Shown: positions 4,859 through 39,677 of the stretch, piece after piece
Position numbering within the stretch: position 1 is the first letter of the stretch
Layout of the letters: the number at the start of each line of letters is the position of its first letter
NCBI GenBank assembly: GCA_964187785.1
Contig: OZ076409.1
Location: forward strand, 36,706,001-36,770,000
Reading direction: 5' to 3'
DNA: 64,000 nucleotides
Origin: Amphiscolops sp. MND2022
Taxonomy: Eukaryota
Notes under the pieces: model-generated
What the model saw: only the letters and a program-made list of their open reading frames with translations
Told to the model about the DNA's origin: nothing
The model's database searches: none
Program-made: the position numbers and the translations under genes

Positions 4859-6077
4859 TTTACTGTTTATTTTACAGTTTTTTCAACTTTGAGCCCCAAT
4901 TTCTCGTCATCTATAATCGCTACGCGTTTGTTTTTGTTTTGAAAAAATAAATTCGACTTCGGACTAACTTCCAGTAGAGAAAGTTCTATCAACAGTTGCT
5001 TCAACATAAACGCTTCCCGTTCGAACACTTGATAGGTTGTATCTGAATACGAGTTTCTAATCAGTTGCCTACTGTCATCGGATCCATTCGAGCTACTGGC
5101 ATGATGGTAGTTAGGTTCTCATGATACACTCCCGGGGCTTTCTCGTGGGACGACTTTCATCTCGCTGGAGTTGCTACTAATCAATTTTTTGACAAAAAAC
5201 GTTCATTGATCAAATGCGACTTTCCAACCTATGTGGTTATCGAAGGTATTCGGGATGTAGTAAAGACTCTTTTTGTGAAAGATGCCGGAGGCAATGGTTC
5301 CTGTTGAAGTGCTAAAATATTGAATCTATCCAGAGCAAGCTCGATCATTTTCTTTTCATATGAAAACTATTGGTACCTTGAGCTGAAAATCTCATTTCCA
5401 GCCAGAAGGCCAGTAATATCTTTGAAACCATTCAAAACCCTGACATGAAGCACCGGTTGTTTCATGCAGTGAACTCCTAGGGCCTTCTTGTGGAGCGAAT
5501 TTCTTCTCGCTGGAGTAGCTACTTGCTGCTTCTTTTGACAAAAACTGATCATTGATCAAATGAGACTTTTAGTCAATTTAGTTTTATGGTGCCTGTCTCT
5601 TTGAGACTATTTGCGATGCAGATGATTTTTGTCCTAAATTTATATGGTGTCCAACTTATTCTCTGTTAGCCTAGCGCTAAGCACTTTAGCGGCTATGTTT
5701 TTAAATTTTCTTACACTTACAAAAATGATGAAATTTGATGATTCGGAAGGCCGTTTCAACAAAAGGTTGCAATAGAGTGACTCGGGGATTAACCTCACCG
5801 AAAACACTGTAAGTAAAAAATCATTTTTACAGGAAAAGATTCTTCTTTCAACTTCAGTTCAGATTCTCATTGAAAAATTTGAATGAATTATTTTATTGAT
5901 GCTTAAATTGAGTCTCACCCATAAACCCTTCACTATGTGGTTGACGCAGTCGAACAATAGTACGGAATTCAGTTCTTTACGGTGCTCAACATTTGAACAA
6001 GTGTTTAGAGCATCACAAATTTCTTTCCTTTTTTAAAACGTTTTTTGCTTAAGCACAGAAGTTTCCACTTTTTACAG

Positions 6078-13200: not shown

Positions 13201-16049
13201 AAATACGACGAAGAATACGTCATTAACATATTAACCGAGCATGCGGAACTGAACGCAAAATATGGTTCACTATTCGACAGCCAATCAGACTACAGCAAAC
13301 AAAATACCGAGACGAAACGGAATACATCCGAGAGCGAAAATGAGCAAAAGAACGACCAATCACACGCAAATAGAACATTCCAGAACAAAGACCACGTGAA
13401 TAAAATTAACGAAAGCGAGAAAACCACATCCGGGCAGTCCGAAATTAGCACCGCAAAGACAAGTTCAAACGTGAAAGAAGAAGATATTGAGAAAATGAAC
13501 CGAGAAAACCTGTACCACTGGGGAGCAACCCGAGAAATTATGGAGATAATAAGAAGAAGAAACAAAAGCCCGGAAACACGGAGACTAGTAGAAAGGAGAG
13601 AAACGCTAGCAAAGCCCGGAACAATGAGAAGACGATACGACCCGCAATCACAGAGAATGATCTTTACACCATCAAGACCGAATAAAAGAAGCCGAGAAGA
13701 GATTGCGGAAATAGATGCGGAGCTCACACAAAGAGCTAACCGAATAGGCGGTGGATACCGGCCAATACTAGAAGAGGAAGAAAATGAACCGGAAGCACCC
13801 GAAGAGGGAGAACTGCAAACTGAACAAAATACGGTGGACACCGAAGAAGATAGCGTGATAATGCGGGGGGACAATTTGCCGATCGTTGACCTCAGCAAAT
13901 ACCATACAGAAGGCAAGGAAGCCCATTACATTCAAATAAACCACATTGTGGGCCGGCTCACCGAGAACAAAAAAATGACGGAAGAAAACATCAAAAAAGC
14001 AGAATTTAATTTCATGCTCGACCTCAAAACACTTATATCCAAAACGGCGATCGATCCGGAAATGACACGAGTCCGGACCAGCATGAGAAGAGAGGAAAAA
14101 GACTCCGCGCCCGAAGGATACAGAGCGGTCTTCGATAAACTCTCGGTTCGATGGGGCCTAGTCTTCGTCGACGATCAAATTGCCGTTCCCATCGACTTGA
14201 GAAGACGGCTTATTGAAATTCTACACTTCGGTCACTCCGGAATAACAAAAATGTTAGCAGACGCGAAGATATTTTGGTGGCCGGAAATGCGGAAAGATAT
14301 CGAACAAAGAGTAAAAGATTGCACAGCCTGCCTAGCTACAGGTAAGAACCTTAAATACCAAATTCCAAAAAACAAGTACGGGAAACTAGAAAAACTGTCC
14401 CAACCGGGACAAGAAATACAAATTGATTTTACCGGAAAATTACATAATAAGAACCTAAACGGCGAACCACAAATATTAATTGCAATAGACCGGTTTAGTA
14501 AATGGCCGACGGCGAAAATTTGTAAAACATCGGAAACAAAAGAAGTTACAAGTTTCCTATCAAATCAGTTTAACTTATACGGCATACCAGAAAAAATTAA
14601 ATCCGATAAAGGGGGAGCGTTCACCTCAACCGAATATAAAGAATTTTGCAAAGCCCGAAATATAGAAGAACAATATTGCCCCCCGAGAATGCATACCGGA
14701 AACGGAACAGTAGAAAGAGCAATACAAACAATGAAAAATCTAGTGCTAGCTAATATGGAAGACGGAAATAACCTAACCGAAAGTGTGAATAGAGCATTAA
14801 AAGTGATGCGATTCACAATACACACCAGACTAAAGAAAACACCATTTGAATTACACCACGGTCGAAAGCCGAGAACGGAACTAACTAACATAATAAAAGA
14901 CGGAAAATCATTCTTATCCAATTGGTCAGAACTGTCCGTTTCAGCACCAAATCGGCCAAAAATACCGATATATGTCGATAGAGACGCAGACGGGGAAATC
15001 ACCAACCACATGGTGATGGCCCGGACAAAGACCGAAAAACGGCAACTGGCCTCGGAGTCAAAATCACCGAAGAAGAGGAGCTCGGTTAGATATCCCTTTA
15101 AATTTCTAGAAAAGAGACATAACCGGAAATCCTTAGAAGGTAGATTCCAATCAAAAATACAAACCGCAGTAAGCGGAACCGAGAACACCGTAAAAACTGA
15201 CACGGGAAAAATAATACACCGAAAATTTATTTCGGATCCATTATTTCAGAGCAAGAAAAGACACCGAAGAGAATCGGCACCGACAGTCTCAACTGAGATA
15301 ACGCCCAAGAACCGACATTGCCTACGCGGACTCGGCGGCAAATACGAGAAATGGGATGAAATACTCAAAGACATCCTAAACGGGAAACTGAGAATAGTGC
15401 AAAACAAAAAGCACACCGAAATAGAGACGGAAGACGTAGACGAAGACGACGAAGAAATACCGGAAGATGCCGGAAAGACGTATGACACATCGGAGAAAGA
15501 TGGACGGTATGCTCCGATACAAACAGACCCCGAAAATGATGTCATACAAATACACACTGACGGAGAAATGCCGCCACAGGGTGAGAACTCTCAAAATAAA
15601 TATAGACGGTCAAACCGAAATATAAATAAACCGAATAGATACGGTGGTATAACATATAAAGGAAATTTTTGGGTATGAAAAAGTTGTTTATATTACAGGC
15701 CACAGCTGGACTCGAACAAAGGGCACACCCAAACCAATACCGGGAACTGCACAAAAACCGCAAGACTTCCTGCCGGAGAACATGACGTTACCCGGCACAT
15801 CTTCAAGCCTCTGAAAAAACCCCGGAGAGAGAAGGGGAAATGTTATACGGTTCATCCGTCAATCAAAAGCAACAACCTTTACCGAACTCCGGTAACAGAC
15901 ATACCAGTCTGTTGTTTACAAACATTAGATGTGAAACTGTTACATCCATTTATGTTATAGAAATACTGTTGTATAGTCTACTACTTTGATACAGAAGAGA
16001 TATTATTTTAGAAAACCTCATTTTATCTAAAGCTAGTTAGAATATAACA
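10233..16049 (+). mobile_element. Ty3/Gypsy LTR retrotransposon (Mag-like), full length but coding-defective
   Basis: 209-bp LTRs (TGTTAT...ATAACA) at 10233-10441 and 15841-16049, with 2 mismatches seen. 5-bp TSD ACCTG. PBS TGGCGCAGTAAGCAAGAT (tRNA-Ser-like) at 10442. PPT at 15824-15840. Confidence 0.95.
10496..15678 (+). pseudogene. gag-pol polyprotein of the Mag-like element (disrupted)
   Basis: Two zinc-knuckle-like motifs, protease IIDTGS, RT WLDD, RNase H TDAS...DH, and integrase HHCC plus DDE. There is a frameshift near 12505-12535 and an in-frame TAG at 12982-12984. Confidence 0.9.
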
Positions 16050-21869: not shown

Positions 21870-23373
21870 TGTCGCGCTATGACTAACGCTCTAACGAATC
21901 ACCAAAAGGCGCTTTCTATTATAAAAAATAACACGTGCAAAGAGAAACATAAAACTTGAACTAACGTTGTGTGGAGAGTGGAAAGTTGAAGTAAATATGG
22001 CGGCGGCCATAACGCGGCGGCCTCGAAGTGGAGTAATAAGTAATGGAATACTACGGGAAAGGAATTGCACTAGTGAAAATTTCTATTTCTTACCGCGGAT
22101 ATTTGAATTTTAAAGCTGAGCTACCATTGGTAGCATGCAACACATGCCGGCCAGGCACTTCAACAGCTGTGCTGAACTGTTTTTATACCGCGCGCACAGG
22201 CTGGAGATTCATTCATTCCCGCCGGACGGCTGAGCTCAACTTACAGCTCTCTCTCTCTCTCTCTCTTCAACTTATCAATTCCTCTACTTCTCTTACACTT
22301 ACTCTCCCCCTTCTCCCCCTCGACTCTTATTCTCCACTTTCTCTTTGCTTACATTGCACTTGTCTTATCTCAGACTTATAAAGTCAAACTTTCCTCCTTT
22401 TCTCCCTTTCCTCAAGCAAAAACTTATCTTTTCCTTTTCTCTATTCCCCAACAGAATTTTCTATCTTAGAAAATTCTCTTCAATTCAACTTGGTCTCCAG
22501 TTGGGTGAGTCGAAAATATCTTAGATTTTTTCTTTTAGAGGAGATTTTTTACTCTCCCTCCTTCTAACTGAACTCTATCTTAGAATAATTCCGCTGATTC
22601 AATTCTGCGGATTCTATCTTATAATAATTCCGCTGATTTAATTCTGCGGTTGTTAAAATTCTATCTTAGAATAATTCTGCTGATTTAATTCTGCGGTTTT
22701 CCCCTGTTAACTTATTTGTCTTTACCATTCCCATATTCAAAAAAAAAAAAGATGCTATTCCTAAAGTCTTAATGCTATTCCTAAAACAAAGGAGTAGAGA
22801 CTATAAAATTAAATAGTGTTGTCTAAGTTATTACAACACCAAAACTGGATTTTTCGTAAAAAAACTTTCTTCGAACTAAAGGAAATTACTATGAATTTCC
22901 TTCGATGCTAAATTTCTTCATCAATTTATGCTCTAAATTGAAATAGCTAAGATATTACTTCGGTTGCTGGCAAATAAATTTGGTGAGTTTGACTGAATAC
23001 TTGTAAACAGTTGAATAAAAACTGATATGTCTGAAGTTCAACTCTTTTATGTAATTCAACAAGTTTGCTAACATATGTTTTTTTTTCTATAGTTCAGAGA
23101 GCTCATTTACATTCACTGCCTTGCACTTACTCACGCAAGTTCCTTTGTTCGCACGTACACGCAAGGCACTTTCTTTTCGGTATTACAAAAAAGAAATTAA
23201 GTTATTGAGACTTTTCTACTTGTTCTACTTCAATAAAACAACAGTTGTTGGAAAAGCATTTTGCCAAATGTTGTAACAGCTGGGCTGACTAATACGGATA
23301 ACAAATTTGGAATTCCCCTCTAAAAGAGGAAACTGTAAAATAGCAGAACTGAAATTTATCCATGCGTGCGACA
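21870..23373 (+). repeat. 5' LTR (1504 bp)
   Basis: Near-identical to 38173-39677. Differences I saw are (CT)10 vs (CT)9, A12 vs A15, and one G/A at 22570. Contains three internal repeats of about 40 bp (22575-22700) and AATAAA at about 23232. Confidence 0.97.
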
Positions 23374-24409: not shown

Positions 24410-25864
24410 ATGGCTGCGCAAAATTACTTGGCTTATCCAGACCTAGGCCGAGACCAATTCACAGGAACAGACCCAGATCAAGATCCTGAACAATTCATAC
24501 AGCTCATTGAAAAGAAGTTCCGGTTTTCTCACGGTGATACCCCGGCCAACGGACCAGCACTTGATGACTACAACTTCAGAAGAAAATCCTATTTTGCTAC
24601 ACTATTAAGAGGACCCGCAGCAGAGTGGTTCGAGACCAGCATCACAGACGCTAACACTTGGGCAGAAATCAGAGAGAGGTTCATAACGCGATTCGCAGAT
24701 GGCAGAAACAAATTTAGACACAGAATGGAAGCCGAACACGTCATCAGACGAGATGGAGAAGAAATAAAGAACTTCCTACACAGAATTAAAATAGTAGTCG
24801 GAAAAGGATGGCCAGATGATCTAGCCGGAGTCGCACAGAACAATAGAGACGCCGAAAGAGCAGCACAAGACAGACAAAGAAGACAGAGGTGCATTGACTA
24901 CTCACTGAGAGGCCTTCGACCCCCGAAACTGAGGGAAAAGGCACACGAATACTTAATGGATCATCCGAATGCAACCTGGGAGCAGTTCTCTCAAGCTGTA
25001 ATAAACAAAGACCTTTCTTACACAGTAACTACCTCTCTCACCGGTGGAGAATCACACGCAGACCCACTCATCCAAGAATTGCGAGAAGACATCAAAGGAA
25101 TCAAGCTACAAATCAAAGAACAGACGAACAACACTATCAATGCAATAGAGAAAACTGTTGATCCGAACGCAACAGGACGTAGAATGGCCACCAGGTTTTG
25201 CAGCTACTGCCGAACAAATGGGCATACGCCTAACTGGTGCAGAAAGAAGATGAGAGATGAAGAAATCAAGAAAGTTCAAAATGAATCCAACCCAGAGAGA
25301 CGAATAACTTTCACCAACGATTACAACAAAAGAACTGGACCTGGACATGGTTCTAGATTCCAAACTAGACTACCCGATTCAGAAATCAGAAAACATATGG
25401 CTGTGGCACATCAACTAGCACTTGCTGGAGCCATGCAGTCAAACCCTGCCCGGAACCAATATGATAGACCACAAAGAAGAAATTTCAACCCAGAACGCCG
25501 ACCTATGAATACAAGATTCAGTCCTGGTAACCAAAGATTTTCACAAGAAGGAAGAAGACCTTTTCTAAACAATTCTAACAATTCCAGAAGTGTTTCTCCT
25601 GGGCCCCAAAGAGCAAGATCTCCGTTCAGCTTCAACAGAGACCAGCCTAACTCCTTCAACCGCAACATACAGCCTCTTCCACCAAGGAATAACTCAGTCT
25701 TTAATAGACCACAAAACAGAAACGAAAGACCAAACACCCCCACTCAAACCTACGAACAAAGGTTCCCTAGAACTAACGACATGGGAAGACATAACACCGT
25801 ACAGTTTCTCGAAACAGATTACTCGGTGAACTCTGTCGCCGATATTCGCCCTTTAAACTATTAA
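24410..25864 (+). CDS. gag: Gag (484 aa)
   Basis: Capsid-like LRGPAAEWF...W.EIRERFITRF, a CCHC knuckle CSYCRTNGHTPNWC, and an R/N/P-rich C-terminus. Confidence 0.92.
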   Translation: MAAQNYLAYPDLGRDQFTGTDPDQDPEQFIQLIEKKFRFSHGDTPANGPALDDYNFRRKSYFATLLRGPAAEWFETSITDANTWAEIRERFITRFADGRNKFRHRMEAEHVIRRDGEEIKNFLHRIKIVVGKGWPDDLAGVAQNNRDAERAAQDRQRRQRCIDYSLRGLRPPKLREKAHEYLMDHPNATWEQFSQAVINKDLSYTVTTSLTGGESHADPLIQELREDIKGIKLQIKEQTNNTINAIEKTVDPNATGRRMATRFCSYCRTNGHTPNWCRKKMRDEEIKKVQNESNPERRITFTNDYNKRTGPGHGSRFQTRLPDSEIRKHMAVAHQLALAGAMQSNPARNQYDRPQRRNFNPERRPMNTRFSPGNQRFSQEGRRPFLNNSNNSRSVSPGPQRARSPFSFNRDQPNSFNRNIQPLPPRNNSVFNRPQNRNERPNTPTQTYEQRFPRTNDMGRHNTVQFLETDYSVNSVADIRPLNY

Positions 25865-28800
25865 GGTCTCCGAAAAACCGTAACAGCAGCACTGCCCCAC
25901 TAAAATTTAGTCTTAATCTTTATTATTTTGCTGCCGGAGACTCACAAAAAGATAGTGGCTTAGAAATCGAATTTCTACTAGACACTGGGGCAACATCTTC
26001 AATCATTAACTACAGGACCTTTAGAGAACTCTGTCAATTTCAACAAGACCTCGAACTCAGCAGAAGTAACAACACAACACGGAACTACTCTGGGCAGATC
26101 ATCCCTATGATGGGATACATCACCCTTAAACTCTACTACGATTCCGATGGACAACATAACTTCCCACTGACAGTCTGGATAACAGAGATGAAGACCCAAA
26201 ACCTCCTTGGAATGAACTTCTGTCAAGAACAAGTTAACAAAATACACTTTGATCTTCCTGGCATAGAACTCAAAAGACCTATAAATACTTTCTGCTATGG
26301 CAGTCTACAACTCAACAAATGTTACCCCTACGTATCACAAATACTCTCAGTCCGAATTCCTCACTCAATGTATATCGAACCAAAGACGACAAGATGTTAC
26401 AAATTTGCACCGGAAAACCCCAAGAACTCCTTTCCTCCCGGATCTACGTTCCTACCCAACAGAAAAGCAGTCTCTACAGGACTAAATTTTATAAATGTCC
26501 TTTGTACAAGATTTGAGAAGACTTTGCCAATCGTCATGGAAAATAACAAAAACCATACAATCACCCTAGTAAAAGGAACTATTGGATACTCTCTGCTCGA
26601 CGTATTAGACCAAGAAATTCCAAAATACCAAGTTAGAAACCCTACGGAACTCGCCTACGCTATCCTAAACGAAAACGAAGAATACAATGACTGTTTCCTG
26701 TTGCACTCCACCATCCCTTCACAAGATATGAACGATTGCATCAGAATAGAAGGAGGAAATTCTACTACAATCCTCAGCAGACCCGACTCCATCATGATCT
26801 TTGTCCCGGCAGATCTGAAGCCAGCCAAAGGCTTCTCGAAAGAAATCCTAACGAACATACCCTTGTTAAAAGAATCTTGCGCAAAACAGAAACCACTCAA
26901 AGGGGATACAATACCTTACTGGGACATGAATCTAAAACGATTCATATACGTCCTAATCACAAAAGCTAAATCAAAAGACAAAATCGACCCACAAATCTTA
27001 GTCCAAACGCTAGAGACTCTAAAAGCACACGCCAAAATGAATTGTATCAAGACCATTTCTATGTTACGAGAAGCGTCAGAACTAGAAGATTTCCAATGGC
27101 AAGATGTGACACAAATTATTCAAGATGTTTTTGCCTACTCGGAAATACAACTCCGAATTTATACAAGAAATGAACTAGACGTCTATGCTATGACTACGAG
27201 AGGAGACCCCGAATACGCGCTGGAAGACGAGATACAACAATTTTCCGAGCAATTTCACCTTAAACATAGAGAGCTGGAGACAGACTTTACGAGTGACGCA
27301 AAGTCTTGTCAACCACCCTGCGATGAGCAATTTAAAATCTTCAGGCAAAAAGAAGACAACGAAAGACTGATCGAGTATTACCTTCAGTACCAGAACAAAG
27401 AAGCAGTGCAATACATCAAAGAATTCGACTTTCGCTACTCAGACCTTACTGACGAGGAACTTGTGCTCCTAATAGACCAACTAATGGATGCGAGAGATGT
27501 ATACTCCCAACACAAATTCGACGTAGGAAAAACCAGACAGAAATTTAACATCAAACTCGAACCTGGAGCAATCCTGAAGAGACAGAGACCCAGCAAAGTA
27601 CCACTTCACCTAAGAGAAAAGTTAGAGAAGCTACTCACACAACTCAAAGACGCCGATATTATCAGAGAGATGGGCGATGACGACGAAATGGGATCCTTAT
27701 TCGTAAATCCTATTATACTACAACCAAAACACGACTATGTAAAACTGATCATAGACGCAAGATACCTAAATTCAGTGACGGATCTAACAAACTACTCCTG
27801 GCCCTTAGAACCGATCCAAACCATAATGACACTAATCAACGGGAACATCTTCTCAGTAAGTGATCTCTCCTGTGCATTTCACCAAGTCCCATTAGACGAG
27901 CCTACACAAAAACTTACAAGCTTCATCATAGGCGGGAAACAATACACCTTCACCAGAGGATTCTACGGACTTAAAGGGTTACCAAGCTTCTTTAGCCGAA
28001 TGATGACAATTCACTTCGAACCTCTCATTAAAAAGAAACAAGCAATCACCTACATAGACGACACGTTGATGCAAGCGAAAAGTAAACAAGAAATGTTCAC
28101 AGTGATTCAAGAATACCATAACCTACTACGGAAAGCGGGACTAAAAGCGGCACCTGACAAAACACTCTTCTTCTTGAGGAAAGTCAAGTTTTTGGGACAT
28201 GTGATTGCAGCAGAAGGAATACAACCCGTAGCTAAACGAGTAAGAGACCTACATAATCTCAAATCACCAAAAACCAAAACCGAAGTGAAAAGCTTCTTGG
28301 GAGCCTTAGGTTTCTACAGCTGCTACATCAAGAACCTTCACGTCGATAGTCGACCCTTTTACGAACTCACAAAAAAGGATACAAATTTCTGTTGGAACCA
28401 AGAACATGAAGACCTCTTCCAACAAATAAAGAAAAGAATCAGCGAAGACACAGTTCTTGCAGTACCTTCAACAAAATATCCCTTTCATATACACGTCGAC
28501 TCTTCCAACGTAGGGACAGGATGTATCCTCATACAACAATTTCCAGAAGGGAAACGGATCATTTCTTTCAATTCCAGAGTCTTCGCAAAAGAAGAACAAA
28601 AAATGTCTACTCTACATAGAGAACTATGTGGAATAGTCTCAGCATTACAAACCTACGAACACTATATCATTGGATCTCCCTTTCCAATTTACTTATATTG
28701 TGACCACAAACCAATTCTTTATCTCTGGGGACGAAAAGGACAAGTTTCACCGCGTTTCTTCAGGTACCAAGTAATAATCTCTAAATTCCCAAATCTCAAG

Positions 28801-31359
28801 ATAATTTGGACCCCAGGAAGCAATTTAGCCTTCCCTGATATACTCAGCAGAAACGTATCGATAGAAGAACACAAAAAACATCAACTCAGTCACAAAATCC
28901 TACCGAACGATATTCACTTCTTCGACGAGCATGGAACCCAAATACACTACAAAATAAAACACGAAGAAAACGAAGAAACGTCAAAAAACGATTTCTACCC
29001 CATCCTGTACGAAAAAGGAGATGAACGAAAAATTCTTCAACTACAAAACGATGGAAATAACTTCACAGTTAACAATATCTACGAGGAACCTAACCTGCCG
29101 AAAATAGAGTCAGCACAGAGTTGTCTCGACGCTGGAAGAGAACTAGGAAAATTTTCAGATCTAAAAATCAGATCCGGGACAAGGGATAGCACTTCCGATT
29201 CGTCTCAGAATACTTACAGCTCCATCAATAGCGATGCAGATGATGAAGCCTGCACAGACAACCAAAGTCATGAAGTAAACGAGACCAACTACGAGCTCAA
29301 CACTGAAGATCTCACCGCACGTAACACAGGTATTCCCGAAAATGCAAAGGCAATAGAACACCTCAGTCTACCTACAAATTCAACGGAAAAACACAAGACC
29401 CCAGCCCGAGAGCTCGTCAGTCAACTCGACAAAATATCAAAAGAAGTGGATCTAGACGTCACAACAATCTTACAAGAACAGATCAATGACCCGGTGCTCA
29501 GTGTGGTTCGACGATGGATACAAACCGGAAACAGGCCTACGCCAAAATCACCAGAATTACAACACTCTAAAGGACTCATGCGCTATTCCCAAGAGTTTGA
29601 TAGATTGACCATAGAAGAAAACGGAAACCTACTGTGCTACAATGAACCTACAGATAAGACGGAAGAAGAAAATCTTCGAATATGCTTACCACTCTCCTTA
29701 TTTCTCGCCTGCTTCCGATTAGGACACTACAACGACCTCGGAGGCCATATGGGAGCCGAGAAAACCTACCTAAATGCTAAAAGATTCTACTACTGGCCCG
29801 GGATGCACGACTGGATTTGTGCCCTCACACAAGATTGCGTTAGCTGCCAATCTAACAAATCCAAACAAAGAAGAAATTACGAAGTCCCACTGGAGGACTG
29901 TGAAACCGAGACCCAAGTATTCAGAACTGTTCATATCGATCACAAGGGACCACTCAACCCTCCCAGTCGTGGAAATTCACATTGCCTCCTCATCATCGAC
30001 GCATTTTCACGCTACTTGATGGCATACCCAGTTAGAGACACAGGTGCACAGTCAACAATCAACGCTATGGAAAAATGGATTATGCACTATGGGATACCGC
30101 AGTCTATCATACACGATAGAGGAACGGCTTTCGTAAACACTGAATTCGTCAATTGGACTAAAGAGTTAGGCATCACTCTCCGGCCAAGAACTGCACACTC
30201 ACCCTGGACTAACGGAAAAGTGGAAACCCAAAACCAACACATTGCAAGGTACTGGAGAAACTTCTTAAACGACTCAGGAAACAACTGGGCCCAACTAGCT
30301 GCTAAATTCGCATTTGCCCACAACACAAGCGTCAACTATACCACTGGAAAGACACCATACGAAATAGTCTTCTGCAATAAACCACAGATACCTATGAGTC
30401 TTAAGTTGGGTCTATACCGTAATAAAAACAAGAATTGCAGATCACAGTTCTGCAACGGACTGCCTCCTCACTGCCACAGCGAAAACCAAGTCAAAAACGA
30501 ACTGCTGAATGGACTATTAAGACCTCAACTATCTCAAAACCTGCTTGAAAGAGAGACCGCCTTCAAGAAAATCTATTCGTCCACTTACGAAAAATGCAGA
30601 AAACAAACAGCTAGATCTCATGCCTACAGAAACAGATTTAAACTAGGCAGCCATCTCAACATCGGACAAAAGGTCTTGTTAGAAAACCATCGGAAAGACC
30701 TCTCCAAAAGTCAAAAACTTCAACAACTGCGATTAGGACCATTTACAGTTACCAAGAGAATCACCAACACAACATACCAAATAAAAAACGATCAAAACCC
30801 CGAAAATCTCCGAACAGTCCATAGAAATCATTTAATAGAATACTTTCCCAAAGAGGAAACACTCCCCCCTCTTATAGAAGAATACACAACTCCCTACCGT
30901 GGAGACACGGATTTCTATAACAATTTTGTCAAAGGAAGAATAGAACGACTTAATGTTTCAGAACCACAGATACTCGGGGATCTCTGCATTTTACCAGTCC
31001 GAAACCAACAAAGACAGACCACCGCACAAAAACGAGTGAGAACTCCCCAGAGCACCGACTCTGGTATTATTTCCCCAGAAAATCACCGGTTGGGAACACC
31101 AACAACTCCGGATCAGCCTACTACATCCCGTCCTCCTGGTTCAACTACTCCTATCCAAACACTGACGCAACAAATAACACCCGAACCCTTGACTACCACA
31201 CCGGCTACTTCGACCAAATCTTTGACACCCCTACAAGAACTCAGGCGAGCGGTTGCAAGTCACGTCGAAAGAAATCCCCGCTATCAGCGAGCACAACCCA
31301 ACCAACCAGCACCACTGTCCATCCTTCGGCAAAAAACTCGCGTAGGCTACAAAGCCTAA
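25852..31359 (+). CDS. pol: Pol (protease, macrodomain, RT, RNase H, integrase), translated by -1 frameshift from gag
   Basis: The -1 frame is open from the slippery site T TTA AAC (25852). LLDTGA has D at 25981, upstream of the ORF-track ATG. Also YIDD (28051), RNase H HVDSS...CDHKP, integrase H-H-C-C, D-D-E and a GPF motif. Confidence 0.95.
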   Translation, partial: FKLLRSPKNRNSSTAPLKFSLNLYYFAAGDSQKDSGLEIEFLLDTGATSSIINYRTFRELCQFQQDLELSRSNNTTRNYSGQIIPMMGYITLKLYYDSDGQHNFPLTVWITEMKTQNLLGMNFCQEQVNKIHFDLPGIELKRPINTFCYGSLQLNKCYPYVSQILSVRIPHSMYIEPKTTRCYKFAPENPKNSFPPGSTFLPNRKAVSTGLNFINVLCTRFEKTLPIVMENNKNHTITLVKGTIGYSLLDVLDQEIPKYQVRNPTELAYAILNENEEYNDCFLLHSTIPSQDMNDCIRIEGGNSTTILSRPDSIMIFVPADLKPAKGFSKEILTNIPLLKESCAKQKPLKGDTIPYWDMNLKRFIYVLITKAKSKDKIDPQILVQTLETLKAHAKMNCIKTISMLREASELEDFQWQDVTQIIQDVFAYSEIQLRIYTRNELDVYAMTTRGDPEYALEDEIQQFSEQFHLKHRELETDFTSDAKSCQPPCDEQFKIFRQKEDNERLIEYYLQYQNKEAVQYIKEFDFRYSDLTDEELVLLIDQLMDARDVYSQHKFDVGKTRQKFNIKLEPGAILKRQRPSKVPLHLREKLEKLLTQLKDADIIREMGDDDEMGSLFVNPIILQPKHDYVKLIIDARYLNSVTDLTNYSWPLEPIQTIMTLINGNIFSVSDLSCAFHQVPLDEPTQKLTSFIIGGKQYTFTRGFYGLKGLPSFFSRMMTIHFEPLIKKKQAITYIDDTLMQAKSKQEMFTVIQEYHNLLRKAGLKAAPDKTLFFLRKVKFLGHVIAAEGIQPVAKRVRDLHNLKSPKTKTEVKSFLGALGFYSCYIKNLHVDSRPFYELTKKDTNFCWNQEHEDLFQQIKKRISEDTVLAVPSTKYPFHIHVDSSNVGTGCILIQQFPEGKRIISFNSRVFAKEEQKMSTLHRELCGIVSALQTYEHYIIGSPFPIYLYCDHKPILYLWGRKGQVSPRFFRYQVIISKFPNLKIIWTPGSNLAFPDILSRNVSIEEHKKHQLSHKILPNDIHFFDEHGTQIHYKIKHEENEETSKNDFYPILYEKGDERKILQLQNDGNNFTVNNIYEEPNLPKIESAQSCLDAGRELGKFSDLKIRSGTRDSTSDSSQNTYSSINSDADDEACTDNQSHEVNETNYELNTEDLTARNTGIPENAKAIEHLSLPTNSTEKHKTPARELVSQLDKISKEVDLDVTTILQEQINDPVLSVVRRWIQTGNRPTPKSPELQHSKGLMRYSQEFDRLTIEENGNLLCYNEPTDKTEEENLRICLPLSLFLACFRLGHYNDLGGHMGAEKTYLNAKRFYYWPGMHDWICALTQDCVSCQSNKSKQRRNYEVPLEDCETETQVFRTVHIDHKGPLNPPSRGNSHCLLIIDAFSRYLMAYPVRDTGAQSTINAMEKWIMHYGIPQSIIHDRGTAFVNTEFVNWTKELGITLRPRTAHSPWTNGKVETQNQHIARYWRNFLNDSGNNWAQLAAKFAFAHNTSVNYTTGKTPYEIVFCNKPQIPMSLKLGLYRNKNKNCRSQFCNGLPPHCHSENQVKNELLNGLLRPQLSQNLLERETAFKKIYSSTYEKCRKQTARSHAYRNRFKLGSHLNIGQKVLLENHRKDLSKSQKLQQLRLGPFTVTKRITNTTYQIKNDQNPENLRTVHRNHLIEYFPKEETLPPLIEEYTTPYRGDTDFYNNFVKGRIERLNVSEPQILGDLCILPVRNQQRQTTAQKRVRTPQSTDSGIISPENHRLGTPTTPDQPTTSRPPGSTTPIQTLTQQITPEPLTTTPATSTKSLTPLQELRRAVASHVERNPRYQRAQPNQPAPLSILRQKTRVGYKA

Positions 31360-31916: not shown

Positions 31917-32561
31917 CTACTCAATCTCCAGAAAACCGCCTTTCTCCGCTAGCCGCCTCAACTGGGAAGCCCGCTCCTCTCTGGTCCATAACTGGTACAG
32001 CCTCACCCACTGCCCCCTCTCGAAGCTGGTCAACTGGCAGAACCCATCTATATAGGCCCTCAGTTGACACAGCACTAATTCCCCTAGAGGGGACAGGAGG
32101 GTTCCCTCCCAACGGGCTCCCAGGTTGGCCCTCAAGAAACTCACAAAGGCATTTGGGATGGGCGCCCCAGATAAGGCAAACCCGGGAGACCCCCGCATGG
32201 AACGGGACAAAGAGGCCCAATTCTCTAACCGGTCCACGTCCCTCCGGTTAAAGAGGCTGAGAAAACTCTGCTCTCCGGGGTTCTCTAAAACCCCTTGAGC
32301 CACTACTGTGGAGGCCTGCAGGACTGGCCTGGGGGCCACAGCAGCAACAGGCGCAGAAGAGGAGGACGGCCCAGCCGCCAACAAAGAAGGCCCAGCCAAC
32401 GACAAAGAAGGCCCAGCGGCCGACGAAGGGCCCACAGACGACGAGGGAGCAGACGACGAGGGAGCAGACGACGAGGGAGCAGACGACGAAGCAGCAGACG
32501 CAACTGTTTCCTCATCGGTCGATGATTCCTCGTAGTAGTCAGACTCGTTGTTGTTACTCAT
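31917..32561 (-). CDS. Antisense accessory ORF (214 aa), acidic and Ser/Ala/Pro-rich N-terminus
   Basis: ATG-initiated. A TATA-like TTATAAAA lies about 65 nt upstream and ATTAAA about 125 nt downstream on the minus strand. It is a GC-rich island inside an A-rich element. Confidence 0.55.
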   Translation of the reverse strand: MSNNNESDYYEESSTDEETVASAASSSAPSSSAPSSSAPSSSVGPSSAAGPSLSLAGPSLLAAGPSSSSAPVAAVAPRPVLQASTVVAQGVLENPGEQSFLSLFNRRDVDRLENWASLSRSMRGSPGFALSGAPIPNAFVSFLRANLGARWEGTLLSPLGELVLCQLRAYIDGFCQLTSFERGQWVRLYQLWTREERASQLRRLAEKGGFLEIE

Positions 32562-32849
32562 TCTGAAGATATCTTAGCTTTTTTTGTCCTAAAGTAATGC
32601 ATGCTTAAACAAATATTTATCTCTTATTTTATAACAATATCTTATGGTTATTTGCCTAAACCGCCTACGATAATCCTACAATAGATAGAATATATCTTTT
32701 GAAACTTCTCTGTACTCAACCACGATCTTCTACGAGATCGTGTTTATACTTTTCAAACACCTCTGTCCTCCAACGCAATGAAATAACTGATGATTACATT
32801 CTCAGATTTGCCATGTTTGAACAACAGTGAACACTGAAGTATCTCACAG

Positions 32850-33071
32850 ATGATCATAATCTTCAAAATCGACAACCGTCTTTCACAAATCACAGATATC
32901 CAGAAGGAACCCTCAACGCAGAACATTATCGTACAAGCATACGCAATAGCAGAAGAAGAAAGTGAAACCTACACTTGTGTGCCAGCATCACCTATCTACC
33001 CTCTACTGGAGAGCTTGCTATATAACAACACCCCTACTGAAGTCGTCACAAGAGCCAAGTCAGTCATTTAA
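32850..33071 (+). CDS. Accessory ORF B (73 aa)
   Basis: Its stop overlaps the next start (TAATG). Pattern is similar to ORFs A, C and D. Confidence 0.5.
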   Translation: MIIIFKIDNRLSQITDIQKEPSTQNIIVQAYAIAEEESETYTCVPASPIYPLLESLLYNNTPTEVVTRAKSVI

Positions 33072-33466
33072 TGTCCTCTCCCGCAGTCGCCGTGTTCCGC
33101 GGAAATAATTACTACTTCCACACACAGTTTCAACCTCCTGTTCCTTGGACTCCCATACAACTCAAGGGCCAATACGAAATACAGTCAATCTTCTACGAGA
33201 TCACAACCTCTGCGATTCAAGTGCGTATACTCACACCAGAAGACAAAGAAGCTCTAGTCCTCTTCCCTATTCACTTCGGATCCAAGGAATACGCCTACTT
33301 ATTCCTTTCGTTCAAGCAATACATCCTCCAACACCCCGCAGTTCTCAAAGACAAGGCTTTCGACGACTTGGTTTATTTTATGGACATCACTCTCACCTCC
33401 AACCCCTTCGAAGAAGAAGTTAGAATCAAATACCTTCACAGCCTAGTCGACACTTATGATGTTTAA
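33071..33466 (+). CDS. Accessory ORF C (131 aa)
   Basis: Start is coupled to ORF B by TAATG; overlaps ORF D by 11 nt. Confidence 0.62.
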   Translation: MSSPAVAVFRGNNYYFHTQFQPPVPWTPIQLKGQYEIQSIFYEITTSAIQVRILTPEDKEALVLFPIHFGSKEYAYLFLSFKQYILQHPAVLKDKAFDDLVYFMDITLTSNPFEEEVRIKYLHSLVDTYDV

Positions 33467-33800
33467 GATTCAACTCAAGTTTCTCTGGCGCCACCCTGAA
33501 ACAAATACACTTCTCGAAATTCTCTCTATCGCTTGGAAAGAAAACGCACCTTCACTACAAATCGAACTCCATAGCCTCCGACCACAAAACCCAGGACATT
33601 GGCTCATCCCAGTTGACACCAACTCCCAAGAGGCTACTGATCTCTCACTCGCACTAAAGGAATATAGGCAAATTGCCTATCTCGACCACATCCACCCTCT
33701 AACACTGTTCCTCCTCAACAAGCTCATTGACTTCCTCGAATTGAGAAGACGAAACAAAACCTCTCCCAGTCTACAATCAATCCGTGACAACTACAATTGA
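33456..33800 (+). CDS. Accessory ORF D (114 aa)
   Basis: ATG overlaps the end of ORF C; paralog-like pattern. Confidence 0.62.
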   Translation: MMFKIQLKFLWRHPETNTLLEILSIAWKENAPSLQIELHSLRPQNPGHWLIPVDTNSQEATDLSLALKEYRQIAYLDHIHPLTLFLLNKLIDFLELRRRNKTSPSLQSIRDNYN

Positions 33801-33845
33801 ACTTTCAGCAATGGTTGAAGTTAGTCTCTTTTAACTTCCTATTTT

Positions 33846-34300
33846 GGCACTTTTTAACAGTAGTGAGGTTACTACTATAAAATTTTAACCTCCGCTTAGT
33901 GCTAGTGCCCACTAAGCTGCCGGTTTGATATTACGGCTTGCCTTTTTACGGCCTTATAACGGATCCTCAATAATAAAATATACTAAAGCTTCAATAATTA
34001 ACCTACTCTTCGGCACTTTTTTAACAGTAGTGAGGTTACTACTATAAAATTTTAACCTCCGCTTAGTGCTAGTGCCCACTAAGCTGTCGGTTTGATATTA
34101 CGACTTGCCTTTTTACGGCCTTACTACGAATCCTCCTCTCTGGAACACACACCTATTTCCCTGAAATAATAAAATACTTATCGTTCCCCTCGGCACGTTT
34201 TAACAGTAGTGAGGTTACTACTATAAAATTTTAACCTCCGCTTAGTGTTGTGCCAGCTAAGCTGCCGGTTTGATATTACGGCTTGCCTCTTTACGGTCTC
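33846..34300 (+). repeat. Three tandem copies of a structured element of about 110 nt upstream of env
   Basis: Copies start at 33846, 34012 and 34192. Stems are conserved, with a compensatory base change in copy 2. Confidence 0.9.
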
Positions 34301-34377: not shown

Positions 34378-36525
34378 ATGAAATTATTTTTCTTACTCTT
34401 CTTATGCGCCAATTTCGCGCCCGTTGTGAACTCACAACGTTCAACGCCAAACCTCGCTAGCGTTGCTAAAAAATTGCGAGTAACTCATTTCGACTGCGGC
34501 GAAATGACACAAAATAAGCTCTACGCCTTGAATCAAGTAGAGCAATGCAATGTGGCCCCGGAAAACTTAGAAGTAAGTCGTGCTAGCGTGACGTTATACA
34601 CTAAACACTTTCGTCGCACTATCAACGCTACTATGTGCCGTGTGAAACACCAGAGTGAAGAATGGCATTGTGGTCATAATGACCACTCCAGTATGTCAAT
34701 CCTACACAACGGAATCACCAGCGATATTTCCTTGTCACCCGAAACCTGTAAGGCCATGGGCGAAGGCAAAGAAGTCATGATCCATGGACAACCCCTCAAA
34801 TTTAAGAAAGGAGTCAAACAAGTACAGACGAGAAACGCCAAATACGGAAAAAGTTGGGATGGAGTACGTGACCCTGATACCCGTAATGAGTGCAAGACAG
34901 GCGGATGGATTAAACGCGAAACCTTCGAATCTCATATCCAAGACGTCGAATTATCAGTCAAAACCAGAGACGGGAAAATCCTCACACCCTTCCAGATGGT
35001 TCTCCCCTGCCCCCTGGAACAACTCGGCTGCGAAACCACGTCATTGGACCCGTACGCCTATACATGGGCAGAGCCAGATAACTGCGTGCTCGCAGTCCAC
35101 AGAAAAGAAATAGTGAATATGATCAAACATGGCTCTAACTACTATATAGTTAGCGGCAACGACTCCACTACCAAGTTCCTATTCGAAATATACAACAGGC
35201 CACAGAAATACTGCAACAAACCCGATGATGTCTACCCTACCAATTACGAATCCCTCTACGTTTCGACCCAATTTGGTGGCTTCGACATGACTTCTGGCAG
35301 ACGACTCGGCATCTCCATGGGAGAAACCTCCAAACTTCAATATTACTCACCCAACGATGGTTCTGGTAATGGCAGACTCCACCTCTTCAGAGGCCCCAGC
35401 GACTCCAACCCCAACACACCACATTATCTCAACATGGATTACGAACTCCACCAAGGAACCAAGTTAGATTATCTCTTCTTTGAGAGCACCCGCTTACTCG
35501 AAGCTTCAGAGATCCAGCTATTGAAAGCTCAATGTGAGCAAGAACGAACACAAATCCTTACCATCCTGATGTTATCCATGGAAAACCCACGACTCGCCGG
35601 ATACATGCTCACGGGAAATCGCTCGATGTTCCTGAACACAGATGGTAGCCTCGCATGGCTCTACCACTGCCCGGAATCCCACTCACCTCTTCACACGATG
35701 AACCAATGCTACGACCGCATACCAATCTTCTACAAGGGAGTGGTCGCCTTTGTAGACCCCATAACCCGACAAACATATCCTAACGCGAACGTACAAAACT
35801 GCACAGATCGTATTAAGAACCTCTTCCAACTGGACATGGAAGACAAGGACTCCTGGTTCACCCTTACACCTTCACCCGAACATCGGGACCGGCCTGCTAT
35901 CTTCGGACCCAAAGACATCCAGCCAATGATTACCAGATCTTTCCCAGGATCACAGGACGCGGGAATGTACACTCCCAAGCAACTCTCCGAGTTTTGGGAC
36001 AACATCCTCATCAGCGCCGCATCACGTAATGCCCTCCAGAAGTTCTCAAGAGAGCTCATCATACCCTCCATGGCCCACAGCGGACCAGAATCCTTCGCGT
36101 ATTACGCACCTCGTACAGATTTCTATGTCGACGGAATGATTTCACCCGACTACTTTAAAAATCAGTTCCTCGAAACATTCGGAAGTATATCTTATGTACT
36201 AGAACTCTGCGGAGCGTACTTTGGCGCTTTCCTTTTTATCAAGTTCGTCATAGATATCACGGTACTAGTCTTCCGCTACTTCGAACTTCGTCACCTTACA
36301 GGTAACACACTGAGCTTCACTAAAACCTTGCTCAGTGCTTCGTACAACCTTTTCTTTACCTCTGTTTTAACTTCCGTATTTACCCCGCGGGCCCCTTTCG
36401 AGGATAGCATTGAAGACAAAAGGGTAAAAACAGAAGACGAAGAAAAAGGAGTAGAACTCCAAATCCTAAAACAAAAAGAGGAATCACTATATCCCTCGGT
36501 ACAGAGCTTTGTTGCTCCAATATGA
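34378..36525 (+). CDS. env: Envelope glycoprotein (715 aa), chuvirus-G/herpes-gB-like class III fusogen candidate
   Basis: Signal peptide and a Cys-rich ectodomain (HFDC, C-x8-HCG, CEQER...P..A..L, CYDRIPI...FVDPITR). N-glycosylation sequons are present, with a C-terminal TM at about 36196-36273. Confidence 0.85.
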   Translation: MKLFFLLFLCANFAPVVNSQRSTPNLASVAKKLRVTHFDCGEMTQNKLYALNQVEQCNVAPENLEVSRASVTLYTKHFRRTINATMCRVKHQSEEWHCGHNDHSSMSILHNGITSDISLSPETCKAMGEGKEVMIHGQPLKFKKGVKQVQTRNAKYGKSWDGVRDPDTRNECKTGGWIKRETFESHIQDVELSVKTRDGKILTPFQMVLPCPLEQLGCETTSLDPYAYTWAEPDNCVLAVHRKEIVNMIKHGSNYYIVSGNDSTTKFLFEIYNRPQKYCNKPDDVYPTNYESLYVSTQFGGFDMTSGRRLGISMGETSKLQYYSPNDGSGNGRLHLFRGPSDSNPNTPHYLNMDYELHQGTKLDYLFFESTRLLEASEIQLLKAQCEQERTQILTILMLSMENPRLAGYMLTGNRSMFLNTDGSLAWLYHCPESHSPLHTMNQCYDRIPIFYKGVVAFVDPITRQTYPNANVQNCTDRIKNLFQLDMEDKDSWFTLTPSPEHRDRPAIFGPKDIQPMITRSFPGSQDAGMYTPKQLSEFWDNILISAASRNALQKFSRELIIPSMAHSGPESFAYYAPRTDFYVDGMISPDYFKNQFLETFGSISYVLELCGAYFGAFLFIKFVIDITVLVFRYFELRHLTGNTLSFTKTLLSASYNLFFTSVLTSVFTPRAPFEDSIEDKRVKTEDEEKGVELQILKQKEESLYPSVQSFVAPI

Positions 36526-36556
36526 ATTATTATCTCATTTCGTAGTTTACGTTTAG

Positions 36557-37159
36557 AATTTAGAACCCTTATTCGACCTCCCAAACCTGGACGACGACAT
36601 CCCTAACTCTATCTTAGAAGACGACTTGCAGATAGAACCCTTATCACCTTCTGACCTGCTGTCACCTGCTTCTCCCACAACTATTACCTTTCTCCTAGAT
36701 CCCCCAGACTCAACAGTTCCTTCTCCGATTCCAAGCGCCCTAACAACAACACCCTCTCCAACGACATCACTACAACTCCCCTTTCCGCTGTCATTTACAG
36801 AAGAGGTAGCGCCTATCCCATCAACTCAACATCCACCTCGATCGCCCCAACATCCACCCCGCTTCGGCGGAAAAGACATAAGACGGGCACTACCCAGGAA
36901 ACACCAACAACAATGGAATGACAAAATAACAGATGACACGCCACTGAAGAAACAACACAAGCGGGAGTACTTCACTAAACGAGCAAGACACGTTAAGAAG
37001 CCCAGATTCAACACAGAGTTGAAATACACTCTCCTCCCACAATTCTCAACTTGGAAAATCGTTTTCTGGGATAACAAGAGACAAGAGTACACCATAGAGA
37101 ACCCAGCCCTAAAGGGACAAAGACTAACGGTCCCCCTAAGAGCCATCTCAGCACAATGA
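36557..37159 (+). CDS. Pro/Ser/Thr-rich ORF with basic C-terminal half, no ATG (possibly spliced)
   Basis: The frame is open from 36557, right after tttacgtttag (acceptor-like). Its stop overlaps the TRAF ORF start (ATGA). Confidence 0.45.
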   Translation, partial: NLEPLFDLPNLDDDIPNSILEDDLQIEPLSPSDLLSPASPTTITFLLDPPDSTVPSPIPSALTTTPSPTTSLQLPFPLSFTEEVAPIPSTQHPPRSPQHPPRFGGKDIRRALPRKHQQQWNDKITDDTPLKKQHKREYFTKRARHVKKPRFNTELKYTLLPQFSTWKIVFWDNKRQEYTIENPALKGQRLTVPLRAISAQ

Positions 37160-38058
37160 ATCGGAGGCTAAACCCAGACGCTATCCCCTTCATCCCAAAA
37201 AGCACTCCTTCCTTCCCCAAAGCTAACGACTGGCCACCTCTATCCAGGACAGAGAATAAAGATGACCTCGAGACACTCGAGGGAATCAAAAGATTGAACA
37301 AATGGATCGCTGAACTGGAAGTCTCAACTAGCCCACAAAGTGAAAAGGTAACCCCGATCCTAAGGAAATCGTTTCCCATAACCGACATAAAACAGCCTAG
37401 AACAAAGTTTGCTAGTGAAATGAAACAACTCCAAAACTTGGCAGAAGAAACGCGGACTAAATGTAATCACTTGGAACTCACAATATCCAATCTACAAGCG
37501 ACAATCAAGTTTCAAGGCGCCCTACTCAACAAAACCAACGTATTAGACGCAAGAAGTGGTGAACCCATCCTTTGGCACATACCCGCTTTTTCCACACTAT
37601 ACAGAAAAGCAAAGACCTCCCCGAATGATGCGTTGAACAACATCAAAAATAGCTTCACTAGCCCTATCTACACTACCCACCTAACCGGCTGCAAAATATC
37701 CCTCAGACTATTCCCTTATGGCGCCAACATCTTCCGCGGAACCCATTCCTCAATTTCTTGTGATCTACACCCCAGCGACTTCACTCTCCCACGAACGTGG
37801 CCTTTCGAGCAACAATTGATCGTCTCAATCATAGACCAAAAAGACAAGAACAACAAATGGTCCATCTCCTTTCCCTATCCCTCCAAAACAGAAGAGTATG
37901 AAGACCCGCACAAGAACGACTACACACTCCCAGGACTGATGAGAGAAGACTTCATCGCGCACACAAAACTCCTGGTAAACTTTAGAGAAGCCTTCCTAAA
38001 CAATGACTCCGTCATAATCCAAATTCAATTTGACAGACCCCTTTTTTCTAAACCCTAG
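37156..38058 (+). CDS. PAM2 - coiled coil - TRAF/MATH domain protein (300 aa)
   Basis: LNPDAIPFIP (PAM2), a heptad segment, then ILWHI...SPIYT...GCKISLRLFPYG...GTH.S...WPF.Q.....IIDQ...FL.NDSVIIQI, matching the TRAF-C consensus. No RING or zinc fingers. Confidence 0.88.
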   Translation: MNRRLNPDAIPFIPKSTPSFPKANDWPPLSRTENKDDLETLEGIKRLNKWIAELEVSTSPQSEKVTPILRKSFPITDIKQPRTKFASEMKQLQNLAEETRTKCNHLELTISNLQATIKFQGALLNKTNVLDARSGEPILWHIPAFSTLYRKAKTSPNDALNNIKNSFTSPIYTTHLTGCKISLRLFPYGANIFRGTHSSISCDLHPSDFTLPRTWPFEQQLIVSIIDQKDKNNKWSISFPYPSKTEEYEDPHKNDYTLPGLMREDFIAHTKLLVNFREAFLNNDSVIIQIQFDRPLFSKP

Positions 38059-38172: not shown

Positions 38173-39677
38173 TGTCGCGCTATGACTAACGCTCTAACGA
38201 ATCACCAAAAGGCGCTTTCTATTATAAAAAATAACACGTGCAAAGAGAAACATAAAACTTGAACTAACGTTGTGTGGAGAGTGGAAAGTTGAAGTAAATA
38301 TGGCGGCGGCCATAACGCGGCGGCCTCGAAGTGGAGTAATAAGTAATGGAATACTACGGGAAAGGAATTGCACTAGTGAAAATTTCTATTTCTTACCGCG
38401 GATATTTGAATTTTAAAGCTGAGCTACCATTGGTAGCATGCAACACATGCCGGCCAGGCACTTCAACAGCTGTGCTGAACTGTTTTTATACCGCGCGCAC
38501 AGGCTGGAGATTCATTCATTCCCGCCGGACGGCTGAGCTCAACTTACAGCTCTCTCTCTCTCTCTCTTCAACTTATCAATTCCTCTACTTCTCTTACACT
38601 TACTCTCCCCCTTCTCCCCCTCGACTCTTATTCTCCACTTTCTCTTTGCTTACATTGCACTTGTCTTATCTCAGACTTATAAAGTCAAACTTTCCTCCTT
38701 TTCTCCCTTTCCTCAAGCAAAAACTTATCTTTTCCTTTTCTCTATTCCCCAACAGAATTTTCTATCTTAGAAAATTCTCTTCAATTCAACTTGGTCTCCA
38801 GTTGGGTGAGTCGAAAATATCTTAGATTTTTTCTTTTAGAGGAGATTTTTTACTCTCCCTCCTTCTAACTAAACTCTATCTTAGAATAATTCCGCTGATT
38901 CAATTCTGCGGATTCTATCTTATAATAATTCCGCTGATTTAATTCTGCGGTTGTTAAAATTCTATCTTAGAATAATTCTGCTGATTTAATTCTGCGGTTT
39001 TCCCCTGTTAACTTATTTGTCTTTACCATTCCCATATTCAAAAAAAAAAAAAAAGATGCTATTCCTAAAGTCTTAATGCTATTCCTAAAACAAAGGAGTA
39101 GAGACTATAAAATTAAATAGTGTTGTCTAAGTTATTACAACACCAAAACTGGATTTTTCGTAAAAAAACTTTCTTCGAACTAAAGGAAATTACTATGAAT
39201 TTCCTTCGATGCTAAATTTCTTCATCAATTTATGCTCTAAATTGAAATAGCTAAGATATTACTTCGGTTGCTGGCAAATAAATTTGGTGAGTTTGACTGA
39301 ATACTTGTAAACAGTTGAATAAAAACTGATATGTCTGAAGTTCAACTCTTTTATGTAATTCAACAAGTTTGCTAACATATGTTTTTTTTTCTATAGTTCA
39401 GAGAGCTCATTTACATTCACTGCCTTGCACTTACTCACGCAAGTTCCTTTGTTCGCACGTACACGCAAGGCACTTTCTTTTCGGTATTACAAAAAAGAAA
39501 TTAAGTTATTGAGACTTTTCTACTTGTTCTACTTCAATAAAACAACAGTTGTTGGAAAAGCATTTTGCCAAATGTTGTAACAGCTGGGCTGACTAATACG
39601 GATAACAAATTTGGAATTCCCCTCTAAAAGAGGAAACTGTAAAATAGCAGAACTGAAATTTATCCATGCGTGCGACA
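38173..39677 (+). repeat. 3' LTR (1505 bp)
   Basis: Direct repeat of 21870-23373, followed by the TSD CAAT. Confidence 0.97.

Follow-up and report, generated by a model that had tools for sequence, protein, structure and literature searches.

The PAM2-TRAF fusion carried by a 17.8-kb env-bearing Ty3/gypsy element is real and under selection, and it combines known parts in a new way. The element lies in the window, by which we mean the whole stretch of DNA analysed (64 kb), and its last gene joins a PAM2-like motif at the N-terminus to a TRAF-C/MATH domain (Table 1). The core of the motif is kept in four element lineages whose proteins have otherwise diverged widely, and the ORF is under purifying selection.

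Table 1. Features of the element, in positions of the window
Feature	Position	Strand	Remarks
5' LTR	21870..23373	+	TG...CA; target-site duplication CAAT before, PBS-like TGG stretch after
gag	24410..25864	+	
pol	25795..31359	+	protease, RT, RNase H, integrase (Ty3/gypsy order)
ORF	31917-32573	-	without Pfam family; kept in lineages A and B
ORF	33041-33466	+	without Pfam family; kept in lineages A and B
ORF	33447-33800	+	without Pfam family; kept in lineages A and B
env-like class III fusion glycoprotein	34378..36525	+	PF24664 Monjiviricetes_fusion, E 3.4e-31
Splice-acceptor-like TAC.TTTAG	36548..36556	+	directly 5' of ORF-X; similar in 6/6 aligned copies; putative splicing
ORF-X	36557..37159	+	200 codons without ATG; C-terminal part kept in lineages A, B, D and E
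ATGA overlap	37156..37159	+	ORF-X stop over PAM2-TRAF start
PAM2-TRAF ORF	37156..38058	+	300 aa, last gene of the element, without RING or zinc finger
PAM2-like motif	37162..37197	+	residues 3-14; Leu at 37168; tail predicted unstructured
Long helix, TRAF-N-like coiled coil	37390..37530	+	aa 79-125; AlphaFold2 pLDDT ~90 and heptad pattern
TRAF-C / MATH domain	37570..38028	+	aa 139-291; Pfam, Foldseek
3' LTR	38173..39677	+	99.6% identical to 5' LTR; purine-rich tract before, CAAT after

The PAM2-like motif and its conservation

Counted from the ATG of the ORF, the motif is the translation of residues 3-14 and reads RRLNPDAIPFIP. In the PAM2 consensus LNxxAxEFxP, Leu and Phe fill two pockets of the MLLE domain, Asn closes a turn, and Ala packs against the MLLE surface (PMC7356810). 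The first-pass annotation had called a PAM2 motif at the extreme N-terminus, and the call held: all five anchors (Leu3, Asn4, Ala7, Phe10 and Pro12) are present, with the correction that Pro stands in place of the consensus Glu at position 9. This Glu is not an anchor, because the structural core is LNxxAxx[F/W] and the side chain of position 9 faces solvent (PMC7356810).

The Pfam scan that had been suggested for the motif had a mixed outcome. The first 25 residues of the window protein matched PAM2 (PF07145) with an E value of 0.004, but the score of 17.2 bits was below the gathering cut-off of 20 bits. PAM2 was not listed when the whole 300-residue protein was searched, nor for the full-length proteins P0174 and P0293. 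The corresponding 25-mers of relatives scored 20.7 (A1), 21.3 (A2), 21.2 (A3) and 17.2 bits (B), three of the four reaching the cut-off. A genome-wide scan with the same family gave 46 matches from 70 candidates, and 39 of the 46 were starts of these TRAF ORFs, as were 25 of the 27 matches above the cut-off; none of the 46 came from the subfamily of the window element. These starts ranked just below two host PAM2 genes. The best two non-element matches, L168 and L170, are sequences that we take to resemble host eRF3 and ataxin-2.

A chance origin of the motif was rejected by a shuffling test. When the protein was shuffled 100,000 times, the core LNxxAxxFxP appeared anywhere in 30 shuffles and inside the first 20 residues in 1, and a looser, ELM-type pattern appeared in 830 and 59, respectively. 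The looser pattern matched only the RRLNPDAIPFIP site in six frames of the 64-kb window. Among 121 other TRAF/MATH proteins (67,454 residues), the core was found in none and the looser pattern in one. A phmmer search of the first 25 residues against PDB chains, where short PAM2 peptides mostly fall under the 20-residue limit, gave no matches.

Conservation across element copies, which the first-pass annotation had named as a check, reached well past near-identical copies. The core LNxxAxxFxP was N-terminal in four lineages (A, B, C1 and C2) that are 27-37% identical to each other; identity was 57-68% among A subfamilies, 37% between A and B (N-terminus of B, MTLNPLARPFVP), and 27-36% for C1 and C2. 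Across the four lineages the five anchors were kept and the spacer positions were free to vary, with position 9 taken by Pro in both A and B, by Ile in C1, by Ala in C2, and by Glu in none; the residues right after the motif were unrelated. Between A subfamilies, residues 5-14 were 80% identical, compared with 30-40% for residues 15-24, and the anchor codons varied synonymously, indicating that the constraint acts on the peptide. The DWPP that follows was weighed as a further motif and discarded, as only its Trp persists in B and it is missing from C.

Within the window's own genome, 50 loci were read, comprising the 30 best and 20 chosen to span lower identities, and the motif stood at the ORF start in 39. 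Among the other 11, five carried substitutions (L030, L033, L034, L043 and L046), one a frameshift (L050), and five were without the region. Five of the six substituted or frameshifted loci carried stops; in L043 the frame is open and Ser replaces the key Phe.

Two of the four motif-carrying lineages, C1 and C2, came from another assembly. For C1, the protein recovered in a wide search (P0036) had a best own-genome match of only 34-44%, and its family thus belongs to another assembly; C1 records hold ORF-X-like and env-like pieces and so likely represent the same element type. The C2 protein P0038 was without the motif in its own record, yet it grouped with PAM2 carriers in the tree; the motif was predicted for the C2 family from this placement and was then found. 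The looser pattern was present in 67 of the best 120 of 352 C1 matches, and the motif in 77 of the best 120 of 539 C2 matches. The N-terminal block was reached by 78 (C1) and 83 (C2) of the best 120 records each, with the core kept in 66 of the 78 and 73 of the 83, and most of the misses were records called from a later Met.

The TRAF protein, its element and its origin

The first-pass annotation had described the motif as fused to the TRAF protein of the element, and the same 300-residue ORF indeed carries both MATH_2 (residues 139-291, E 8.9e-12) and TRAF-mep_MATH in Pfam. Foldseek of the predicted beta domain retrieved TRAF4, 5, 3 and 2 (E ~1e-12), and the ESM Atlas gave generic TRAF/MATH clusters only (0.92). 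An AlphaFold2 model from the single sequence reached a pLDDT of 35, and a model from a 42-row alignment (mean pLDDT 79) was used instead. It predicts helices at residues 35-58 and 79-125 followed by the beta domain, with residues 1-34 free of secondary structure (pLDDT 50-55). In the best heptad register of helix 79-125, 77% of the a/d positions are hydrophobic. Pfam detected in the 300 residues neither the N-terminal RING nor the zinc fingers that TRAF2-6 have; the product is therefore a TRAF-domain protein and not a canonical E3 TRAF. Human TRAF1 likewise has no RING.

The ORF is under purifying selection, with dN/dS of ~0.13-0.16 between A subfamilies (Nei-Gojobori; dS near saturation). TRAF-C was the best-kept large region, at 66-76% between A subfamilies. 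At the positions presumed to form the receptor-binding groove in canonical TRAFs, compared by eye, lineage A keeps the strand Arg and has two much changed downstream stretches, and the partner may thus lie outside the TRAF pathway.

The LTRs, target-site duplication, gag, PR-RT-RH-IN order and env ORF identify the element as Ty3/gypsy, and it is young and virus-like. A genome search with the PAM2-TRAF ORF returned 132 matches, of which 19 were full-length at 98-100% and ~15 covered residues 201-298 only. In internally deleted copies (L038, L044, L045, P0007 and P0047), env-like sequence joins the TRAF part and PAM2 is gone. Between the window and two other A subfamilies (L151/L154), ORF-X and TRAF (window 36557-38058) showed dS of 1.3-3.7, near saturation; for gag, pol and env of the same subfamilies, dS was 0.6-1.0 and identity 89-95%. 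The greater divergence of ORF-X/TRAF, at synonymous sites too, suggests exchange of a 3' cassette between lineages.

Three further observations concern the window. Three direct repeats with ~170-bp spacing lie directly before env (33831-34299). An insert in pol between protease and RT (~26780-27170, +) resembles a TARG1-type macrodomain by eye and has no Pfam match. A second gypsy-type element (10433-15678, +) has its pol split over three ORFs.

Two other env-bearing gypsy lineages, D (L143/L144) and E (L145/L146), with pol at 56-58% to that of the window, carry the same ORF-X and TRAF cassette and are present in many near-identical copies. Neither has PAM2, at the TRAF ORF or in any ORF of the 20 kb surrounding a single copy per lineage, and relocation of the motif to another ORF was rejected on this basis. 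A third lineage, F (L113-L142, L147), is also without the motif; it is multi-copy and carries the same host TRAF, and the ~20 kb read had no match to gag, pol or env. Its frame ends at the point where the last intron lies in the host gene, which points to a likely second capture at the DNA level.

A host TRAF gene that has introns and a zinc-finger-like exon was recovered at L153 (G000:C3:90862500-90872499, -). It has a stretch, FPL.NLK..QYLHA, in common with lineages C1, D and F, and judged by sequence it is likely the donor lineage. The PAM2 pattern had no match in the 10 kb with the recovered exons, and another 20 kb, which holds other mobile DNA, did not yield the 5' exons; that the motif was inherited from the host TRAF was thus rejected on the recovered exons, and to that extent incompletely. 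Just 5' of the recovered exons lies an element of BEL/Pao type, as assigned by eye. Its Gag region has a looser PAM2-like sequence, PSANAAPFIP (L160, -; at reverse-strand nt 5229), and PAM2 mimicry may thus extend beyond the TRAF ORF.

Since three mobile TRAF lineages and the recovered host exons are without PAM2, the motif is an add-on of one branch and dispensable for the TRAF cargo. Trees of the TRAF region joined A, B and C in one branch with support of 90/90 (31 rows; two rows left out, for which the cut failed) and 92/92 (23 rows). Trees joining A and B with D or E were not rejected (p-AU 0.10-0.18), so that a single PAM2 gain after TRAF capture is likely rather than proven. The TRAF cargo was likely taken from the host as an intron-less copy, and PAM2 was likely gained later by one branch, in place of the zinc-finger region of the host gene.

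Candidate partners and roles

The host encodes a PABP with RRMs and an MLLE domain (L051/L158; 79 bits) and a UBR5-like HECT ligase that also carries an MLLE (L052); humans likewise have two MLLE proteins, PABP and UBR5 (PMC9753129). The window motif would probably bind MLLE, and PABP would be the main partner with somewhat lower probability. Complex prediction with the host PABP MLLE (88 aa) and residues 1-34 gave ipSAE values of 0.29, 0.32 and 0.30 against a mark of 0.34; the prediction was made without alignments or control folds, on peptides outside the proven use of the tool, and was counted neither way. PAM2 affinities range from 0.3 to 300 uM, and PABP far outnumbers its PAM2 partners (bioRxiv 10.64898/2026.01.10.698208). 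With affinities spanning about a thousandfold, the strength or effect of binding cannot be read from sequence.

As a whole, the reading that we favour is tentative, with a chance somewhat below even. The RING-less TRAF with its PAM2 tip would be a two-ended adaptor: PAM2 would dock onto the MLLE of host PABP, the coiled coil would oligomerise the adaptor, and the TRAF end would keep host TRAFs or TRAF partners on PABP-coated mRNA particles and off signalling. Oligomer formation is probable by homology to TRAFs; the trimer proposed in the first-pass annotation is likewise presumed from homology, and its avidity and any effect on termination, decay or granules are putative. That the adaptor serves to damp host TRAF signalling is possible and less than probable. 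The TRAF end has a role of its own, since TRAF cargo spreads without PAM2 and TRAF-C is the best-kept region, and on the same grounds we read the motif as an address on a pre-existing TRAF function. TRAF2 is recruited to stress granules, which partly suppresses NF-kB signalling, and this parking under stress echoes the outcome proposed for the adaptor (PMC7552005). Against the adaptor stand the score of the window motif under the Pfam cut-off, the absence of Glu in four lineages, and the change of Phe to Ser in L043. In evolutionary terms, a clade of endogenous retrovirus-like elements found in at least two animal assemblies might have made a chimeric effector, in which the ligase end of a captured TRAF was swapped for a PAM2 mimic, and TRAF would be parked on PABP-bound mRNA particles or its partners given to UBR5; we hold this, too, only tentatively.

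The junction between ORF-X and the TRAF ORF bears on how the protein is made. The ATGA overlap was kept in all six aligned copies; lineage B shows a joint shift of both codons, stop and start, by two codons with the register of the motif unchanged. The overlap is found in A and B, and the PAM2-less lineages have spacers of 7 nt (D) and 37 nt (E) between stop and start. PAM2-TRAF is probably made from spliced RNA by stop-restart at the ATGA, which is the simplest route. The element protein could alternatively, along the lines of the first-pass annotation, be a competitor for PABP: the TRAF part would mostly multiply the PAM2, which would displace eRF3 or deadenylase adaptors and so tune termination, stop-restart or decay of the long multi-ORF element RNAs. 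We consider this unlikely. The overlap in the PAM2 lineages, its joint movement in B and the spacers in D and E argue for it, as do the long branch that separates A and B TRAF-C from the host gene and the finding that avidity counts in PAM2 competition (bioRxiv 10.64898/2026.01.10.698208). However, the correlation of overlap with PAM2 comprises only two lineages per side, D and E have the same layout and many near-identical copies without PAM2 (20 kb, one copy each), and TRAF-C is kept better than a bare scaffold would need. The spread of PAM2-less ORF-X/TRAF elements and the presence of a UBR5-like MLLE in the host temper a purely translational reading.

More doubtful still is a role as a ligase adaptor, in which PAM2 would recruit the host UBR5/HYD HECT via its MLLE in replacement of the lost RING, so that TRAF-C partners, or the protein itself, are ubiquitinated. 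The MLLE adjoins the HECT at the host locus, the motif occupies the place of the host gene's zinc-finger region, and the UBR5 MLLE binds PAM2 peptides and helps substrate choice (PMC11326040). On the other hand, PAM2 affinity is lower for UBR5 than for PABP and UBR5 bears nuclear localisation signals (PMC11326040), and the RING-less lineages D and E do without PAM2. Finally, it is very unlikely that the peptide only resembles PAM2, does not bind MLLE and is kept for another partner or as an RNA signal at the stop-start junction: the low Pfam score, the missing Glu and the lower synonymous change in codons 5-14 (pS ~0.4, against 0.6-0.77 elsewhere in the ORF; only 10 codons) would fit, but precisely the five anchors are kept while spacers vary freely in four lineages, anchor codons vary synonymously, and constraint from an overlapping frame was rejected because ORF-X ends at the ATGA and does not overlap the motif.

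Binding of the motif would bring the element to the PABP hub at which eRF3, deadenylase adaptors and UBR5 compete. It would then also point to a TRAF-based defence against retroelements in this host group, where the same host TRAF is carried by three or more mobile lineages without PAM2. If the adaptor reading is true, a cell response otherwise restricted to stress would be hard-wired, and an MLLE ligand encoded by a mobile element would connect innate or death signalling with the control of poly(A). Sister lineages with and without PAM2 share one genome and offer a natural comparison.

Relation to known systems

Viral cleavage, relocation or exhaustion of PABP is known, but in a search of mostly open-access literature, neither a PAM2-TRAF/MATH fusion nor a mobile element or virus encoding its own PAM2 was found. 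Cellular PAM2 proteins (eRF3, PAIP2, ataxin-2, LARP4/4B, TOB, NFX1 and USP10) have the same LNxxAxxFxP core in an unstructured region. The window motif differs from theirs in being encoded by a mobile element, in its place at the extreme N-terminus, in its fusion to TRAF, and in the replaced Glu at position 9.

TRAF cargo is already known from Burro/GYPSM1, giant gypsy-like elements of planarians, where it has been proposed to interfere with apoptosis and ubiquitination (PMC6431247). Likened by description only, these elements and that of the window are both env-bearing and gypsy-like with a MATH_TRAF_C domain, which in one planarian species forms a separate accessory ORF. In Burro/GYPSM1, the TRAF lies in or upstream of a polyprotein of 4,900-5,100 residues with BIR, BCL2 and ankyrin, whereas here it forms a 300-residue last ORF after env; PAM2 is not mentioned in the accessible part of that description (PMC6431247).

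Env-bearing gypsy elements are widespread, and the 'errantiviruses' with a herpes-gB-type env have gag, pol, a separate gB-class env and many young copies, as here (PMC13524379). The window element differs in its five extra ORFs, and a term search of the accessible main text on these elements gave 0 occurrences of TRAF or MATH (PMC13524379). A captured TRAF with coiled coil and MATH that acts on host signalling is also encoded by the megalocytivirus ISKNV (ORF111L; PMC3352826). ORF111L keeps its RING and binds TRADD, and PAM2 goes unmentioned in the available text (PMC3352826); the window protein, in contrast, is RING-less and bears PAM2.
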